The notes: generated by a model from the letters alone, not told the origin. Positions 21,421-32,237 are shown, counted from the first letter of the stretch. The stretch is DNA of 64,000 bases from Escherichia coli (GCF_044324875.1 NZ_CP172185.1), one strand, 5' to 3'. Numbers and translations: made by a program.

Positions 21421-22350
21421 TCAGTTACCGGCCTCAGCAATACGCTCAGCCTGTTGCAGGTTCTCTTTGGTGATCAGCGTCGGCGGATAGTCCGCCCCGG
21501 TGATAGTTTTTTTCTCACGCACGTTAGCCACCAGTTGGCTCATCGCCGTGGTCACCGCAAAGCCGGGACGCTGATCCGCCGTAACCGCCAGCCAGCCGTC
21601 GCGCACGCGGGCCAGTGCTTCCGGTACCGCATCAAAACCGGTGACCAGGATTTCACCCGGTTTCACACCCTGACTCTGCAGCGCTTCAATCGCCCCCAGC
21701 GCCATATCATCGTTGGCAGAGAGGATCACCTGAGGACGTTTTGGCAGCGACGGCAAAACGCTTTCGACAATGCGCATCCCTTCCGAGCGCATCCAGTTGC
21801 CGGTCTGATCGGCGACGATCTTGTACATATCCCCGCCAGCCTTCAGGCTGTCACGGATCCCTTTGGTGCGTTCAATGTTGGAGGAGGAACCCGGTTGACC
21901 GGTCAACAGAATGATCTCCGCGCCGTTGGGGAATTTGGTTTTGACGAAGTCGCCAATCGCCTGGCCGCCCTTGTAGTTGTTGGCACCAAAGTGCGGCACT
22001 TTTTTCTGGCTGTCGACAGAGCGGTCAAGCGTAACGACCGGCAGCTTCGTATCCTGAATTTCATCTACCGCACTGGAGACCGCGTTCACATCGTTCGGGG
22101 AGACGATAAAGCCCTGCGCACCACGGGTGATGGCGTTTTCCAGGTCAGCCACCTGCTTCGGTGAGCTGCCCTGACCGTCCAGTACCTGAAGTTTCACCCC
22201 CATCTCTTTTGCGGCTTTCACCGCCGTGCGCTGCATGTGAACTTCAAACGGCATGGCCAGGTTTGGCGTACTGAAAACAATTTGCTCGTTTTCGGCTATG
22301 GCGGCCCCGGATGTCATGGCGATTAGGGCGGCTAAGATCAGTTTTTTCAT
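21421..22350 (-). CDS. periplasmic sugar-binding protein of ABC transporter
   Basis: Track ORF 21421..22398; start at MKKLILAALIAMTSGAAIA (signal peptide) preferred; RbsB-like fold. Confidence 0.8.
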   Translation of the reverse strand: MKKLILAALIAMTSGAAIAENEQIVFSTPNLAMPFEVHMQRTAVKAAKEMGVKLQVLDGQGSSPKQVADLENAITRGAQGFIVSPNDVNAVSSAVDEIQDTKLPVVTLDRSVDSQKKVPHFGANNYKGGQAIGDFVKTKFPNGAEIILLTGQPGSSSNIERTKGIRDSLKAGGDMYKIVADQTGNWMRSEGMRIVESVLPSLPKRPQVILSANDDMALGAIEALQSQGVKPGEILVTGFDAVPEALARVRDGWLAVTADQRPGFAVTTAMSQLVANVREKKTITGADYPPTLITKENLQQAERIAEAGN

Positions 22351-22381
22351 TATTATGTCTCTCTGTGTAGGGTTGTTGTGT

Positions 22382-23368
22382 TTAGAGGACGATCTCACGC
22401 TGGCAACGCAGTGATTCCAGCGCTTTATCCGCTAGGTACAGCGCACGTTCACCATCATCGCCGCTGCAATCAGGCACCGCTTCGCCGCGCAGAACCGCAA
22501 CAAAGTGCTCCCATTCCGCTGCGTAAGCGGATTTGTAGCGTTGCAGGAAGAAGTGTTCCGGCAGCGCGCTGGTGCAACCCTGTTTGCCGTAGTGCTGCAC
22601 CTGGTTTTCAAGGATATTGCCCGCGCACAGCAGCCCTTCGGAACCGTGTAGCTCCAGGCGCTGGTCGTAGCCGTATGAAGAGCGGCGACTGTTGACGATG
22701 GTCGCCATCGCGCCGGAGGCATATTTCAGAACGATAAATGCGGTGTCGATATCTCCCGCTCCGCCAATCGCCGGCTCCACCAGATTGCTGCCCTGTGCAT
22801 ACACCGACACCGGCTCTTCACCCATGATGAAGCGTGCCATGTCAAAGTCGTGGATGGTCATATCACGGAACATGCCGCCGGAAACACGCACGTACTCCGC
22901 AGGCGGTGGAGACGGATCGCGGGAGATGATCAGCAGTGATTCCGGTTTGCCGATACGCCCGGCCTGAGTGTCGGTTTTCACGCGACGGAACTGTGGGTCA
23001 AAGCGGCGGTTAAAACCGATAAACAGCGGTACGTCATACTCTTTGACCACTTTCAGGCAGTCGCGTACGCGGGCAAGATCAAGGTGTACCGGTTTTTCAC
23101 AGAAAATGGCTTTGCCGTAACGGGCGGCCATTTCAATCAGATCCGCGTGGGTGTCGGTCGCGGAGGCGATCAATACGGCATGAACGTTCGGATCGGTCAT
23201 CGCCTCATCCAGGCTCTGCTGGCGCGCCTGATACTGTGTCGCGAGACGCGTGGCGAACTCCTGATTCGGGTCTACCACAGACCAGAGCGTGGTCGCACTA
23301 TGGCTGGCGATGTTAGCTGCATGTACCTGGCCAATTCGGCCAGCGCCCAGTAAAGCAATGTTAAACAT
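22382..23368 (-). CDS. iolG: myo-inositol 2-dehydrogenase IolG
   Basis: 328 aa Gfo/Idh/MocA protein, GAGRIGQVHA dinucleotide motif and CEKP. Confidence 0.8.
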   Translation of the reverse strand: MFNIALLGAGRIGQVHAANIASHSATTLWSVVDPNQEFATRLATQYQARQQSLDEAMTDPNVHAVLIASATDTHADLIEMAARYGKAIFCEKPVHLDLARVRDCLKVVKEYDVPLFIGFNRRFDPQFRRVKTDTQAGRIGKPESLLIISRDPSPPPAEYVRVSGGMFRDMTIHDFDMARFIMGEEPVSVYAQGSNLVEPAIGGAGDIDTAFIVLKYASGAMATIVNSRRSSYGYDQRLELHGSEGLLCAGNILENQVQHYGKQGCTSALPEHFFLQRYKSAYAAEWEHFVAVLRGEAVPDCSGDDGERALYLADKALESLRCQREIVL

Positions 23369-23570
23369 AACGGCTCCCGGTGTTGATGAATGCGGTGAAC
23401 TAACGACACTACAAATAAAACATTTATTTCATTTTTATAAATAGTGAAAATTATATTTTGAGTGCCAGTTAACACTTTTGAGATGTATTAGATAAATTTT
23501 GTTATCAATCTCACAACGCCGAGGAAGATATGTCCCTCCATTACAAGGGGGGGAGGGAATAAAAACTGTA

Positions 23571-23601
23571 CCATCCCCTCTCCCGTTGGGAGAGGGGATG
23601 G
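23571..23601 (-). terminator. perfect 14-bp-arm palindrome, likely terminator after iolD
   Basis: CCATCCCCTCTCCC-GTT-GGGAGAGGGGATGG followed on minus strand by TTTTTATT; second GC hairpin (TCCCTCC...GGAGGGA) at 23533-23558. Confidence 0.5.
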
Positions 23602-23652
23602 GTGAGGGGAAAAAAGAAAAATGAAATGAAAATTTCGTTACGACAGGAAAAC

Positions 23653-25578
23653 TCAATACTGACGAGCTTTTTTCACCTGAGCCTGTGTTTGCTCGGCGGC
23701 CTGGCGCACTGCTGGCGACTCTGCCACCTGTGCGTTGCCGGTTCGCCACCATGACGCGTAATCATGGGTCATGGTTTTTGGTAGCACTTTGATGTCGAGG
23801 AGCGTCGGTCCCGGGTGAGCGCGCGAGGCTTCCAGCGCCGCCAGCAGGCTTTTCTCATTATGTACCCGCCATGCGCGGCAACCGTAGCTTTCCGCGTTTT
23901 GCGCAAAATCGACCTTCACCAACGGCCCGTCAAGCTGACCTGTTTTCGGATTACGGTAACGATTTTCTGTGCCAAAACTCCCCATTCCGTGCCCCATCTG
24001 CAGGTTATTAATGCAGCCGAAGCTGGCGTTATCAAACAGCAGAATGGTGACCTTAATTCCCTCCTGTACGGCAGTTTGCAGCTCTGAGTGCAGCATCATG
24101 TACGAACCATCGCCTACCATGGCATACACCGGCTGCTGAGGTTTTGCCAGCTTCGCACCAATAGCCGCTGCGACCTCATACCCCATGCAGGAGTAACCAT
24201 ACTCCAGATGGTAACTGTCAGGCGTTTTAACCTGCCAGAGGCGTTGCAAATCCCCTGGCAGCGATCCGGCCGCCCCCACCACAATGGCGTTATCCTCAAT
24301 ATGCTGGTTAATGAGCCCCAACACCCGCGTCTGGGTCAGGTGTGTGTTGAGCGTTTCACCGTATTCCATTAGCTGTGCATCAAGGTGCCCTGCCACTTCG
24401 GGAACGTCGTCAGGATGCCACTGGCGTTCCCACAGTCGACAGCATTCATCGTGCCAAGCGGATTTCGCATGGGCAATCGCCTCCCCCCAGCCACTACGAT
24501 AATCTTTCAGTGCGTGGGTCAACGCTGTCAGACCAGTTCGGGCATCGGCAATGAGCGCGGTGGCATCCAGCTTCAGGGAGTCAAACTCAGCCACGTTCAG
24601 CAGCAGGAACTCGACGTCGGGATGAGAAAAGAGCGCCTTAGAGCCGGTAGTAAAATCCGTCAGGCGCGTGCCGATGCCAATCACTAAGTCAGCCTGCGGC
24701 GCAAGCTGGTTGGCAGCCATTCCGCCCGTCACGCCCACCCCGCCCAGATTAAGCGGGTGGTCACTTACCAGCGCCCCCTTACCGGCCTGGGTTTCGGCAA
24801 ACGGCAATTGCAGCACTTCAACAAATTCCCGTAACGCCTCATGCGCACCGGAGTAACGCACGCCACCGCCGCACACCACCAGTGGACGGCGCTTGCGGGA
24901 AATCAATGCATGAGCCTGCGCCAGTCGCTGCGGGTCAGGCGGACGGCGTTCAATATGATGCACCCGACGCGCAAAGAAACTCAGGGGGTAATCCCAGGCC
25001 TCCCCCTGCACATCCTGAGGTAGGCAAATGGTCACCGCTCCTGTATTTGCGGGGTCAGTAAGCGTTCGCATCGCACTTAACATCGCGCTCATAAGCTGTT
25101 CAGGACGGTTGATGCGGTCCCAGTAGCGGGAAACCGGGCGGAAGCAATCGTTGGTACTGATGCTGAGATCGTGATACTGCTCGATCTGCTGCAACACGGG
25201 GTCAGGCTGGCGGCAGGCGTAGATATCCCCTGGCAGTAGCAGCAGTGGAATGCGGTTCGCCGTGGCCGTCGCTGCCGCCGTCACCATATTGGCAGCGCCA
25301 GGCCCAACGGATGAGGTGACAGCAAAAATACGCTGACGGCGATGCTGTTTGGCGAATCCCGTCGCCATATGGGCAATCCCCTGCTCGTTACAGCCTTGCA
25401 TCACCTGCAGATGACCAGGATCCTGCTCCAGCGCCTGGCCGATACCGAGCACGTTACCGTGCCCAAAGATCGTTGCCACGCCCTCCACAAAGGGCGTTTC
25501 TTTACCATCAACGCTAACATATTGTTGGTTAAGAAATCTGACCAGCGCCTGGGCCATAGTCATACGTTCGGTTTGCAT
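23653..25578 (-). CDS. iolD: 3D-(3,5/4)-trihydroxycyclohexane-1,2-dione hydrolase IolD
   Basis: 641 aa thiamine-diphosphate enzyme (GDGS TPP motif); start may be a few codons internal. Confidence 0.85.
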
Positions 25579-25589
25579 AAAACCCCCTG

Positions 25590-27095
25590 TCAGCCCAGCG
25601 TCGGCATGGAGAACGCTGCACCTGTCTCCTGCTGCATTTCCGGCCAGCGTGCAGTGATGGTTTTCATTCGGGTGTAGAAACGCACGCCATCGTTCCCGTG
25701 AACATTGAGCGCGCCAAAAATGGAACGTTTCCAGCCACCGAAACAGTGGAATGCCATTGGCACCGGGATCGGCACGTTGACCCCCACCATACCCGCCTGC
25801 ACCTCTTCACAAAAGCGGCGTGCGCAGCCACCGTCACGGGTGAAAATGGCCGAGCCATTACCATATTCGTGTCGGTTAATCAGATCCACCGCGCTGGCGT
25901 AATCTGCTACGCGCACCACAGAAAGCACCGGTCCGAAAATTTCTTCTTTATAGATGGTCATCTCCGGGGTGACGTTATCGAACAGAGTCGGCCCAACGAA
26001 ATAGCCCTGCTCGTGCCCTTTCACTCTGAGGCCACGCCCGTCCACACGCAGGTTAGCCCCCTGAGCTTCGCCACTGTCGATATAGCCCAACACTTTGCTG
26101 CGGTGTGCGGCGGAGATCAGCGGCCCCATCTCGTTTTCTGGCGTCTGGTTCAGGCCAGGTCCGACGCGCAACGAAGCGATCTTTTTTTCCAGCCGGGCGC
26201 AGAGTTCATCAGCCGTTTTATCGCCAACCGCCACCACCACGGAAAGCGCCATGCAGCGTTCTCCTGCCGCACCATAAGCTGCGCCCATTATGGCGTTTGT
26301 CGCCATATCCATATCGGCATCCGGCATTAAAATGCAGTGGTTTTTCGCACCGCCGAGCGCCTGACAGCGCTTACCGTGGGCGGACGCAGTCAGGTACATG
26401 TATTCGGCAATCGGTGTTGAACCGACAAAACTGACGGCCTGCACGCGCGGGTCGGTCAGGAGCACATCAACGGATTCTTTATCGCCCTGCACCACGTTGA
26501 ATACGCCGTCCGGCAGGCCTGCCTCTTTCAGCAGTTTCGCCAGCGCGAGCGCCAGAGACGGATCTTTTTCCGACGGTTTCAGCACGAAGGTGTTGCCTGT
26601 CGCCAGAGCTATCGGGAACATCCACATTGGCACCATCGCCGGGAAGTTAAACGGCGTGATCCCGGCGCAGACCCCGAGCGGCTGCATCAGTGAGTGGCTG
26701 TCGACACCTGTGCCAACGTTCGCAGAGTGTTCGCCTTTTTGCAGATGTGGGATGCCGCAGGCGAATTCTACCACTTCCAGACCACGGGTCAGTTCACCTA
26801 CTGCATCTGAGAAGACCTTACCGTGTTCTTCACTGATAATACGGGCCAGACGCTCCATATTCTCTTCAAGCAACGCTTTGAAGCGGAACATCACACGCGC
26901 GCGCTTGAGTGGAGCAAAACGTGCCCACGCGGGAAACGCCAACTGTGCTGCGGCAATCGCCTGTTCGGTTTCCTGTGCCGTACTCATCACCACCTGGCGA
27001 ATCTGCTCGCCAGTGGCCGGGTTGAAGATCGCCTGAATGCGCTGGCCTGAACCGGTGACACATTCGCCGTGAATAAAATTCGCTACCGTCTCCAT
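25590..27095 (-). CDS. iolA: malonate/methylmalonate-semialdehyde dehydrogenase IolA
   Basis: 501 aa aldehyde dehydrogenase with catalytic Cys region GERCMA and EEIFGPV. Confidence 0.85.
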
Positions 27096-27385
27096 CCTTA
27101 ACCTCTCGCTGTTGATACGTGATTGTTACCTGAACGTTATGTACTGAACACTATATATGAAACAAATATTCCATTTTAAGTTGAAATAAAATAAATAATG
27201 ATTATTGTGATCAAGGATGGATTTTTATGTGAACAGCCAGCATCACTGACTCAGCCTGAGCTATTAGGAGTTTCGGGCGAGGAAATGACTGAAGCTTCTG
27301 TTTCATTTTTGCTGCCAAGTGGATGGCCAACATTTAAAAGACGCGGTTTTGCGTTTAGAATCATGAGACTGGATAGGGGGATAAC

Positions 27386-28246
27386 ATGACGACAGCAACC
27401 AGCCTGAACGAACTACAAAAGCAAATCCGCGATCGCTACGATAGCCTGAGCAAAAGGCTGCAGCAGGTCTCCCGCTATGTACTGGATAATACGAACAGTG
27501 TCGCGTTTGATACGGTTGCGGTCATAGCCGAACGTGCCGATGTTCCACCCTCTACACTGATTCGTTTTGCCAATGCCTTTGACTTCACCGGCTTCAACGA
27601 AATGAAACAGTTATTTCGTATGCACCTGGTGGAGGAAACCGCCAGCTACAGCGATCGTGCGCGACTGTTCCGCGAAATGGAGAGCGAAGCCGTACCTGAA
27701 ACGCCGCTCGATATTTTGCAGGAGTTCGCCAGTTCGAACTCGCAGGCGCTGCAGCAGTTGGCTGCCCGCGCCGAACCGGAGATGCTGGAGCACGCCGTAC
27801 AACTACTGGCCTACGCCGACACCATTTACATCGCCGGATTACGCAGATCCTTTAGCATTGCTGCTTATCTTACCTATGCTTTAAGCCACCTAGAGTGCCG
27901 CCCTATTCTGCTTGACGGGATGGGCGGCATGCTGCGCGAACAGATCAGCCGTATTAAGGCGTGCGACATTGTGGTGTCGATCAGTTTCTCGCCGTACGCG
28001 GAAGAAACGGCGATGGTCAGCAAAACCGCCGCCAGCGTCGGCGCTCGGCAGATTGTGATTACGGATAGCCAGATCAGCCCACTGGCAACGTTCAGTGATC
28101 TCTGCTTTGTGGTGAAAGAGGCTCAGGTGGACGCATTTCGGTCTCAGTCGGCAACATTGTGTCTGGTGCAGTCGTTAGTGGTCGCGCTAGCTTACCGTTT
28201 AGGAGATAAAAAACATAATAATACCCAGGAAAACAGTAACCAATAA
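27386..28246 (+). CDS. iolR: RpiR-family transcriptional repressor IolR
   Basis: 286 aa, N-terminal HTH plus C-terminal SIS domain, divergent from iolA. Confidence 0.8.
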   Translation: MTTATSLNELQKQIRDRYDSLSKRLQQVSRYVLDNTNSVAFDTVAVIAERADVPPSTLIRFANAFDFTGFNEMKQLFRMHLVEETASYSDRARLFREMESEAVPETPLDILQEFASSNSQALQQLAARAEPEMLEHAVQLLAYADTIYIAGLRRSFSIAAYLTYALSHLECRPILLDGMGGMLREQISRIKACDIVVSISFSPYAEETAMVSKTAASVGARQIVITDSQISPLATFSDLCFVVKEAQVDAFRSQSATLCLVQSLVVALAYRLGDKKHNNTQENSNQ

Positions 28247-28354
28247 TAACCAATGAACTCCTCCCCCGAGTCCATATAAGAGTAAATGATTCGGTGCCAG
28301 TAGCGATACAGACTTCAGATTGAATATCAACTGTACTGCTATCTCCCTAAAAGG

Positions 28355-28835
28355 TCATGCCCCATGTGAGCGTACAACGAGAGCCTTAATCCTTAATAGC
28401 GAAGAAGATTTCTCTAGTAGGTGGTAATGTAACCCAGATATAACGGCTTCTTTAAACAGTTTATTTACCATCGTTTTCTTACCTAGCAGGCGCTGAAGTT
28501 CTTTAATTTTATTCATGGCGGCAGCAAGTTCAGAGGCCGGAATACCCTTTTCTTCGGCTGTCACAGTAGTGAAGCTTCCTTCAAGGTAATGATACGCCAG
28601 AGAAATAACGGGCTGACCACCATACCATGTTGCCAGGCAATCAGGAAGACCATCATTCCTGGTTCAAAACTCTGTTGAACAGTAGCGATTTTGCGTGTGT
28701 GATGCGCAGTCTGCGTTTCTCCGATCCTGAGACATCAATCATCTGTTCTATATGAACGCATCCCGTTTGCAAGGCTTTCGTAGTTTTGACATTGACGGTA
28801 GGTTGCAGCTCTATATCCGGCCTTGTTGCAGCCAT
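28355..28835 (-). pseudogene. IS2-like (IS3-family) orfA remnant
   Basis: Track ORF 28355..28564 has ...[33 protein letters not shown], matching the IS2 InsC leucine zipper; upstream fragment 28653..28835 is frameshifted; no orfB. Confidence 0.55.
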
Positions 28836-29020
28836 GAAGCTGCGGGCCCCTATGTAATACGCTGACTCGCGCCTTATTCTCCCAGCGAGCTTTAATCTCC
28901 AGAACAGATTCAGGTTTAGCGAGTCCCGGTCTTACCTGTCGTTGTCATCACTACGGCTGCCCACGCAACCTTTCAGCATTCACCTTTTTGTAAAGAGTTT
29001 ATGTTTATCGGTATCAGCGA

Positions 29021-29791
29021 TTAATAAGGCCTGATACTGACATGATTTTTGTCGTATTTACGTCCGTGAGCGGCTATTGCCCACACCGTTCGCGCCAGCT
29101 TGTTTGCCATTGCGACGATTGCCACGCTGGCCGGACGACGTTTTTTCAGTTCGGTTATCCACGGCCCAGGTTCTTTGGTCAGTAATGCTGCCGCCCTTGC
29201 ACCATGAATAAACAGGGTTCGCAGATATTTATCACCACGTTTGCTTATTCCCAGCAGGCGGATTTTTCCTCCTGAGCCTGTCTGTCTGGGCACCAGACCA
29301 ACATAAGCCGCGAACTCTCGCCCTGATTTAAACACTGATGCTTTCCCCATGATGGCCAACGCTGCCGTTGCAATAAGTGGCCCAACGCCAGGAATATCCA
29401 GCAACCGTCTACAGGTTTCATTCTGTCTCGCCACACTGGTAAGCTGTTTTTCTATATCATCTATCAGTGAGTCCAGTTCATTCAGCCTGTAGTACTGATT
29501 TTCCAGCACTGTAATGAGATACAGTGGCAGTCTCTCTTTCATCCGCTCCAGTGCTTCAGGGAACTCCCGTTCCATCGCTGCCCGACCTTTGTGGATGGTT
29601 TCACCAAACTCCAGTAACGTCCCGTGCAGGGCATTAATTTGCGCGGTCCGGAACTTCACCAGTTGTCTGCGGGAACGGTGCAGAACCAGTATTGACTGTT
29701 GTTCTTCTGTTTTGACGGCGATTTCTTTGCCTGGCTGCTGTACCGCCATCCAGATAGCTCGCGCATCCATCACGTCATTCTTATTGCCCAT
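29021..29791 (-). pseudogene. IS110-family transposase, N-terminally truncated by IS629
   Basis: 256-aa ORF matches the C-terminal two-thirds of IS110/IS1111-type transposases; N-terminal domain missing, IS629 end at 29817. Confidence 0.65.
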
Positions 29792-29857
29792 GACGAATGC
29801 TTTAACGAAGCGAGCTGAACCGCCCCGGGTTTCCTGGAGAGTGTTTTATCTGTGAAC

Positions 29858-32237
<2,380 letters not shown>

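Follow-up and report, generated by a model that had tools for sequence, protein, structure and literature searches.

The Escherichia coli genome GCF_044324875.1 (NZ_CP172185.1) harbours a myo-inositol cluster, which lies within the 64,000-nucleotide stretch of DNA analysed here and referred to below as the window. In this cluster iolA, on the minus strand, and the regulator gene iolR, on the plus strand, diverge from an intergenic region of 290 bp (27096–27385; 38.3% G+C). This gap is probably a conserved bidirectional control region of an inositol divergon, conventional in type, with promoters repressed by IolR. Its most prominent element is O1 (ATGAAACAAATATTCCAT, ATGAAA-N6-TTCCAT; 27157–27174), a palindrome that is predicted to be a high-affinity IolR operator and that appears to fill the spacer of the best predicted iolA promoter. 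The original prediction, drawn from the sequence alone, had expected IolR operators and promoters for both directions in this gap. That expectation is supported by conserved promoter-like elements pointing both ways and by palindromes of the kind expected of an IolR of the RpiR type.

A scan with the IolR protein, restricted to one genome per species, recovered 80 loci from about 20 enterobacterial genera, in which IolR is 72–96% identical. The genera include Enterobacter, Lelliottia, Citrobacter, Pluralibacter, Yokenella, Edwardsiella, Buttiauxella, Yersinia, Cedecea, Pectobacterium, Dickeya, Brenneria, Pragia, Photorhabdus, Xenorhabdus and Providencia, among others. More than 70 of the 80 loci have iolA and iolR side by side in divergent orientation, and 78 distinct orthologous gaps were aligned; identity values refer throughout to identity to the window sequence. 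O1 is present in every one of these gaps, in most of them 43–107 bp from the iolA ATG. Its hexamers ATGAAA and TTCCAT show identities of 0.99 and 0.87, whereas the intervening six bases reach 0.66, and the palindrome becomes perfect (ATGAAA-N6-TTTCAT) in Pragia, Xenorhabdus, Providencia and some Photorhabdus. A non-palindromic box, TGTGATC-N9-TTTTTATG (27206–27229), is as conserved as O1: identity is 0.91 over 27199–27212 (…TATTGTGATC) and 0.96 over 27222–27229 (TTTTTATG), and the box lies 49–50 bp from O1 in 76 of the 78 relatives. The first ten codons of iolA and iolR reach only 0.79 and 0.74, below the conserved blocks, and the low-identity parts of the gap are the iolA leader (0.50), 27230–27288 (0.40) and 27307–27332 (0.38).

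Promoters were sought with a consensus scan and a position weight matrix scan, and all transcription starts given here are predicted ones. The best candidate on the minus strand (10.3 bits) belongs to iolA and can be read either as TTAAAA-18-TATAGT (−35 at 27179–27174, −10 at 27155–27150) or as CTTAAA-17-TATATA (27180–27175 and 27157–27152), so that the −35 falls within 27174–27180 and the −10, which abuts O1, within 27150–27157; the predicted start is at about 27143–27146. An operator that fills the spacer between −35 and −10 occupies the classical position for steric repression. A promoter-like −10 is found at the homologous iolA-side position in 75 of the 78 relatives, the sequence ATATA directly follows O1 on the iolA side in nearly all of them, and the −35 is TTGAAA in Photorhabdus, Xenorhabdus and Providencia. 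The Salmonella promoter PiolD1 displays the same layout, an operator followed by TATAAT. On the plus strand the best candidate (11.7 bits) is TTTAAA-17-TAGAAT at 27333–27361, with a predicted start at approximately 27368 and a leader of about 18 nucleotides; TAnAAT stands 25–35 nucleotides before the iolR ATG in many genera. The Shine-Dalgarno sequence of iolR, AGGGGGA (27375–27381), has its counterpart in a GGGG or GGAG that is conserved before the ATG in relatives.

The specificity of the palindrome was assessed with a scoring matrix built from O1 sites alone, to which the sites of the iolD–iolG gap made no contribution. O1 itself scores 34.3 bits. In the window the matrix also picks out an IolR-type operator of 29.3 bits (CAAATAAAACATTTATTTCATTTT, 23412–23435), upstream of the iolG–transporter–iolCEB operon, and a weaker site of 16.2 bits (23618–23641) in the same iolD–iolG gap; simulated DNA of the same dinucleotide content yields 0.005 expected matches per 64 kb at a threshold of 16 bits and about 0.06 per window at one of 12 bits. 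Across 570 kb of related loci, matches of at least 14 bits number 97 in the iolA–iolR gap, 43 at one intragenic position of iolR and 10 elsewhere, with none in iolA or iolD. One of the ten lies in Providencia, about 55 bp upstream of an inositol-dehydrogenase-like gene. When the matrix is applied to the Salmonella-type island, its top matches fall in the iolC–iolD gap (31.5, 18.5 and 12 bits) and before reiD (15 bits), and these are promoters that IolR shifts in electrophoretic mobility shift assays (PMC5349611). ATGRAA-N6-TTYCAT is put forward as a candidate operator consensus of enterobacterial IolR. The pattern looked for in IolR operators, GRAA-N6-TTYC palindromes at iol promoters and usually in more than one copy, is recognizable by sequence at O1, at the palindrome O2 described below, and at 23412–23435 and 23618–23641.

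The regulator to which these sites are assigned is encoded by iolR (27386–28246, plus strand). Its product matches Pfam HTH_6 over residues 10–86 (38 bits) and SIS over residues 141–267 (61 bits), both above the gathering scores, which places it in the RpiR/MurR family; NCBIfam gave RpiR-family matches below threshold only. The protein is 62% identical over 268 residues to the IolR of the Salmonella Typhimurium-type island, with an almost identical helix-turn-helix segment. By this orthology to a characterized IolR, and by its linkage to iol genes, it may be classed as an RpiR-type IolR. From linkage, recurrence and analogy we infer that IolR is the protein that binds O1 and O2.

Two further palindromic sites accompany O1. 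The first, O1b (TTGAAATAAAATAAATAA, 27181–27198), is a weak operator-like site at a fixed centre-to-centre distance of +29 bp from O1, and this position holds the second-best site in many genera. Its right half is poor in E. coli and a better palindrome (TTGAAA-N6-TTCAAT) occurs in Providencia. The second, O2 (CTGAAGCTTCTGTTTCAT, 27289–27306), is predicted to be a weaker IolR operator; it is located 132 bp from O1 and approximately 70 bp upstream of the proximal iolR start. The right half of O2, TTTCAT, has an identity of 0.79, and variants of the site are ATGAATTATNTATTTCAT in Photorhabdus and Xenorhabdus and ATGAAGTCGCGCTTTCAT in Edwardsiella. The distance between O1 and O2 is 132–146 bp in most genera and 170 and 186 bp in two others, and 88–91 bp separate the iolR ATG from the centre of O2 in Escherichia/Enterobacter, Edwardsiella, Photorhabdus and one Providencia. 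The top-scoring site in the interval from O1 to the iolR ATG, in some gaps a site other than O2, exceeds 95% of dinucleotide shuffles in 45 of the 78 gaps and 99% in 19.

These elements can be assembled into a simple mechanism. A core of about 60 bp (27150–27212; 20% G+C) would hold back-to-back promoter elements, with O1 in the spacer of the iolA promoter. IolR, encoded next door, would most likely bind O1 as a dimer or tetramer and thereby exclude RNA polymerase from the promoter of the iolA–iolD unit. With O2 some 70 bp upstream of the proximal iolR promoter and the degenerate O1b 29 bp from O1, the three sites together may support multi-site cooperative binding and negative autoregulation, as in Salmonella IolR. 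The occurrence of the same operator type before iolG–transporter–iolCEB (23412–23435) would put the whole cluster under one repressor. Induction would ensue when 2-deoxy-5-keto-D-gluconate 6-phosphate (DKGP) binds the SIS domain and IolR is released.

Among the closest known systems is the S. Typhimurium island GEI4417/4436, which encodes the homologous repressor described above. Salmonella IolR is a negative autoregulator that occupies two or more sites per promoter, which differ in affinity, oligomerizes and is antagonized by DKGP (PMC5349611), and these AT-rich promoters are also targets of CRP and H-NS (PMC10783015). The two islands differ in architecture: in Salmonella iolR neighbours iolT1 rather than iolA, and that island has an extra activator, ReiD, as well as major facilitator superfamily importers and srfJ, whereas the E. 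coli island relies on an ABC transporter and apparently comprises only three transcription units. A second point of reference is the regulon of the alphaproteobacterial RpiR-type IolR (Caulobacter crescentus CC1297 and relatives), in which the motif GGAA-N6-TTCC is often found in more than one copy per promoter and mutation of one copy derepresses iolC (PMC2597717). That regulon shares with the present one the regulator family, a module that includes an ABC inositol transporter, and purine-rich half-sites of 4 bp that stand 6 bp apart (GRAA-N6-TTYC). Caulobacter iolR is reportedly unresponsive to inositol (PMC2597717), whereas the layout in E. coli suggests autoregulation. The half-sites of the E. 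coli cluster, ATGRAA and TTYCAT, are also A/T-richer and longer than those of the alphaproteobacterial motif.

The IolR of Bacillus subtilis is a DeoR-type regulator. Its operators are unrelated, and catabolite control in B. subtilis proceeds via CcpA and cre instead of CRP. This repressor comes from a different family and shares no homology with the RpiR-type IolR (PMC2597717). The arrangement of iolABCDEFGHIJ and iolRS in that organism is nevertheless alike, as an operon and its repressor gene diverge from one shared control region with operators in both directions, and DKGP is the inducer there too (PMC5349611).

The original prediction had described the gap as long and AT-rich. The divergent orientation of iolA and iolR and the 290 bp between them are borne out by the list of open reading frames (ORFs), the family scans and RefSeq. 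The two adjectives hold in part. Compared with the iol cluster (57% G+C) and the window (51%) the gap is indeed AT-rich overall, but unevenly, and strongly so in its left half only: G+C amounts to 29% at 27096–27235 and 20.5% at 27150–27232, as against 47% at 27236–27385. Its length is similarly relative. It is one of two gaps of more than 51 bp in the eleven-gene cluster, the other being the iolD–iolG gap of 284 bp. Orthologous iolA–iolR gaps range over 155–566 bp, with most at 247–345 bp. Such a length is normal for a divergent gene pair with two promoters.

The gap contains a variable and dispensable spacer (27230–27288), which is absent from the short gaps of some relatives. The segment of approximately 27235–27332, which includes O2, is mostly or wholly missing from Citrobacter koseri and two other Citrobacter (gaps of 213–215 bp), from Pluralibacter gergoviae (158 bp) and from Yokenella (155 bp). 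In Yersinia pestis three tandem copies of a unit of about 17 bp (GATGATTGAGGTATTA-like) are accommodated between the conserved core and O2, which implies that this segment tolerates insertions. Two Xenorhabdus species, X. bovienii and X. miraniensis, have lost iolA, so that iolR now diverges from iolD instead, although X. miraniensis still carries a vestige of the iolA start; both retain the full array of O1, O1b, TGTGATC, TTTTTATG and O2.

Several observations weigh against a control region governed by IolR in the manner proposed. O2 scores merely 8 bits in the window, is missing from several of the short orthologous gaps and, at about −70, is in a non-classical position for repression. The spacings between O1 and O2 (132/133, 141–146, 170/171 and 186 bp) reveal no fixed helical phase, and looping is therefore unsupported by phasing. 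The −10 candidates of iolA often lack the final T. Moreover, the Salmonella iolR and iolT1 promoters, which bind IolR in vitro, match the motif weakly (just 2.6 and 8.6 bits); either the matrix is too narrow or IolR recognizes further features. In Salmonella no consensus operator has been defined, and none was derivable even with the footprint at Ppat, which covers −112 to −70 (PMC4513076). A count of exact dyads in seven iol promoters that are not alignable with one another found GAAA-N6-TTTC in three of the seven (shuffle mean 0.22), a result that is not significant after correction for multiple testing because over half of the shuffles contain some dyad that reaches three; when genus representatives are counted in this way, the outcome largely reflects their common ancestry. 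Finally, the best-conserved non-palindromic box, at 27206–27229, is not accounted for by the repressor model.

The alternative that survives best concerns the promoter of iolR. An additional plus-strand candidate, TTGAAA-16-TATTGT (27181–27208), stands back-to-back with the iolA −35 and, with a start at about 27215, would generate a leader of about 170 nucleotides containing O2; it is possible, with a chance well short of even, that iolR is transcribed mainly from this distal promoter, with O2 at about +80 as a roadblock or loop anchor and O1b, which overlaps the −35 and spacer, lying over the −35. This scheme would retain the long leader of the original prediction, with regulation based on DNA operators instead of RNA. 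The distal candidate scores almost as well as the proximal one (11.5 versus 11.7 bits), sits in the most conserved block of the gap, and is matched in 55 of the 78 relatives by a promoter-like −10 at the corresponding position. Pluralibacter and Yokenella, with their short gaps, have the ribosome-binding region almost immediately after the TTTTTATG box, and in Xenorhabdus O2 is only 32 bp from the ATG, which calls for a promoter upstream of or over O2. Against these points, the −35 TTGAAA is conserved at just 0.64, the −10 in Providencia lacks the A at position 2, and the would-be leader is devoid of structure and of conserved sequence beyond O2. Natural rearrangements in Edwardsiella also speak for the proximal promoter and its leader of about 18 nucleotides. 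E. anguillarum and E. ictaluri each carry an intact orphan iolR (87–88% identical); neither iolA nor iolD is found within 3 kb of it, and the O1 core is absent from both species. In E. ictaluri the native DNA upstream of iolR extends for about 60 bp, starts at TTTAAA and holds TTTAAA-17-TAGAAT, while E. anguillarum retains O2 together with the proximal promoter; neither has the distal core. E. hoshinae displays the full arrangement.

A more elaborate, and rather unlikely, version of IolR autoregulation in this widespread type of enterobacterial cluster envisages a multi-operator assembly, in which O1/O1b, O2 and a site inside iolR are bridged by IolR tetramers in the fashion of the lac and gal loops, while the conserved box serves a second factor. 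The intragenic site, the operator-like 18-mer ATGAAACAGTTATTTCGT at 27602–27619, scores 20.7 bits in the window, reaches at least 14 bits in 43 loci and spans the codons M-K-Q-L-F-R. Its lysine codon is AAA in all of the approximately 70 distinct orthologous sequences, and neighbouring synonymous sites vary. It is possibly a third IolR site, or possibly a coding coincidence. If such an assembly exists, it could underlie the bistable and hysteretic induction described for Salmonella.

The conserved box also invites the proposal, somewhat less probable still, that the palindromes, the TGTGATC box or both are bound by a factor other than IolR, such as CRP or another global regulator, and that IolR recognizes something else in the gap. 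TGTGATC corresponds to the left half of the CRP consensus and is placed about 68–71 bp upstream of the predicted iolA start. Salmonella requires CRP to grow on inositol, and the regulator binds the majority of its iol promoters and has a consensus site in PiolA (PMC10783015); in the window a CRP-like site with nine of ten core matches precedes iolG (23497–23518); CRP control of the box would fit both observations. The poor scores of PiolR and PiolT1 in Salmonella, which bind IolR, point in the same direction. The right half of the box, however, lacks conservation and does not resemble TCACA in any genus, and the full site is unremarkable, with a CRP score of 0.59 when 170 positions of the window score at least 0.6. 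Three further findings bring the palindromes back to IolR: ATGRAA-N6-TTYCAT occurs only beside iolR-linked iol promoters in the 570 kb of loci and the 64-kb window, its geometry is that of the alphaproteobacterial IolR motif, and the helix-turn-helix of IolR is nearly invariant with respect to that of Salmonella.

Other roles for the box were considered. A class I CRP site at 27203–27224 was rejected, as six of ten core bases match and these in the left half only, and a comparison by eye with the Fur, IHF, FNR and Cra consensus sequences produced no convincing conserved match. The box contains the sole GATC of the gap, and a Dam-based switch is weak because there is only this one. The pattern TGTGATC-N9-TTTTT is no rarer than chance in the window (one found, 0.55 expected). 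Part of the box may represent the −10 of the distal promoter (TATTGT) or a −10 on the other strand (CACAAT).

It is very improbable that the AT-rich stretch represents nothing more than DNA gained by horizontal transfer and silenced by H-NS, its conservation being due to recent transfer and not to specific operators. The composition would suit this explanation, with a core of 20–29% G+C in a cluster of 57%, and H-NS binds most Salmonella iol promoters (PMC10783015). The island is manifestly mobile as well: it is accessory and rare in E. coli, with 51 occurrences in 5426 complete genomes (∼1%), many of them from cattle and poultry, it is plasmid-borne in seven copies, and it is flanked by insertion sequence (IS) elements. 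On the other hand, discrete palindromic blocks with fixed spacings persist across genera in which IolA and IolR are 72–80% identical and the flanking non-coding DNA about 40%, and the half-sites are conserved while the N6 between them varies. H-NS binding is in any case compatible with an IolR-repressed divergon and is no replacement for it.

The least plausible proposal, that a cis-acting leader RNA or a small protein encoded by a 63-codon ORF (ORF63; 27198–27389, plus strand) and translationally coupled to iolR regulates this gene, can be set aside with little hesitation, since the frame is unconserved, there is no Rfam match, folding shows no excess and the segment is variable or absent. 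In its favour, the ORF63 stop overlaps the iolR start (ATGA), and among 51 RefSeq genomes one has a hypothetical protein annotated in the gap, which is unannotated in the other 50; in E. coli ATCC 8739 the gap is 99.3% identical. Only the window and two other chromosomal E. coli variants have a frame that stays open over all 63 codons; it closes after at most 11 codons in most relatives, a plasmid-borne E. coli copy and most other genera having TGT TAA at codons 11–12, and the start position is variously ATG, TTG, TTA, GCA or TCA. ORF63 has no family match in Pfam or NCBIfam and is not a gene; the judgement of the original prediction that it is non-credible is thus upheld. Its suggestion of extra regulation in a long iolR leader fared less well. 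A scan of 22000–30000 against Rfam at E ≤ 1 returned a single chance snoRNA match outside the gap, the putative 186-nucleotide iolR leader folds no better than shuffled sequences (z = +0.33), as does the iolA leader (z = −0.04), and the segment concerned is deleted in several genera. An RNA- or peptide-based leader mechanism is accordingly unlikely. At position 27231 the window has G where almost all relatives have T (TATGTG versus TATGTT); with this substitution ORF63 loses the TAA stop at codon 12, and a conserved hexamer that resembles a −10 or a −35 element on either strand is changed too.

The gene content of the locus conforms to an inositol catabolic island. Ten of the eleven genes occupy the minus strand, in coordinate order iolB, iolE, iolC, a Gfo/Idh/MocA oxidoreductase, the ABC permease, ATPase and binding protein, iolG, iolD and iolA, with the regulator gene divergent on the plus strand. 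iolA, also known as mmsA (25590–27095), is the first gene of the iolA–iolD unit; it matches TIGR01722 with 675.7 bits, appears in the ORF list and in RefSeq annotation of identical DNA, and its orthologues align from residue 1. Its product is a CoA-acylating (methyl)malonate-semialdehyde dehydrogenase. The iolD–iolG gap (23369–23652) constitutes a second control region with two IolR-type sites and the CRP-like site, and a terminator-like hairpin with a 14-bp stem follows iolD (23571–23601, minus strand). Together, these control sites and the hairpin suggest that iolA–iolD and iolG…iolB are separate transcription units. A literature search found no publication on an E. coli iol cluster of this type.

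Beyond the 3′ end of iolR the island border (28247–32171) is a patchwork of mobile elements, comprising a 5′-truncated IS110-family transposase ORF (29021–29791, minus strand) and IS21 istA/istB (30370–32171, plus strand); in other E. coli the same border holds IS66, IS3 or IS30 and a fragment of an afimbrial adhesin. At some distance from the cluster, AATATGGAAAGGTTATTTCATAAT (63648–63671) matches the motif with 15.9 bits about 157 bp upstream of an AbgT-family transporter ORF (61932–63491, minus strand), which adjoins a Peptidase_S6 (SPATE-type) autotransporter (57745–61620, minus strand).

Inositol derived from dietary phytate is a carbon source in the gut, and in E. coli the iol genes are accessory and mobile. 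The general picture of catabolic divergons is left unchanged by this region. For the enterobacterial RpiR-type IolR, strong multi-site binding has been described (PMC5349611) but no recognizable consensus (PMC4513076), and what the present analysis adds is a concrete and testable candidate operator, ATGRAA-N6-TTYCAT, together with its positions relative to predicted promoters. Such an operator would allow prediction of the regulon, the construction of operator mutants that dissect bistable induction, and deployment of the region itself as an inositol-inducible expression switch.

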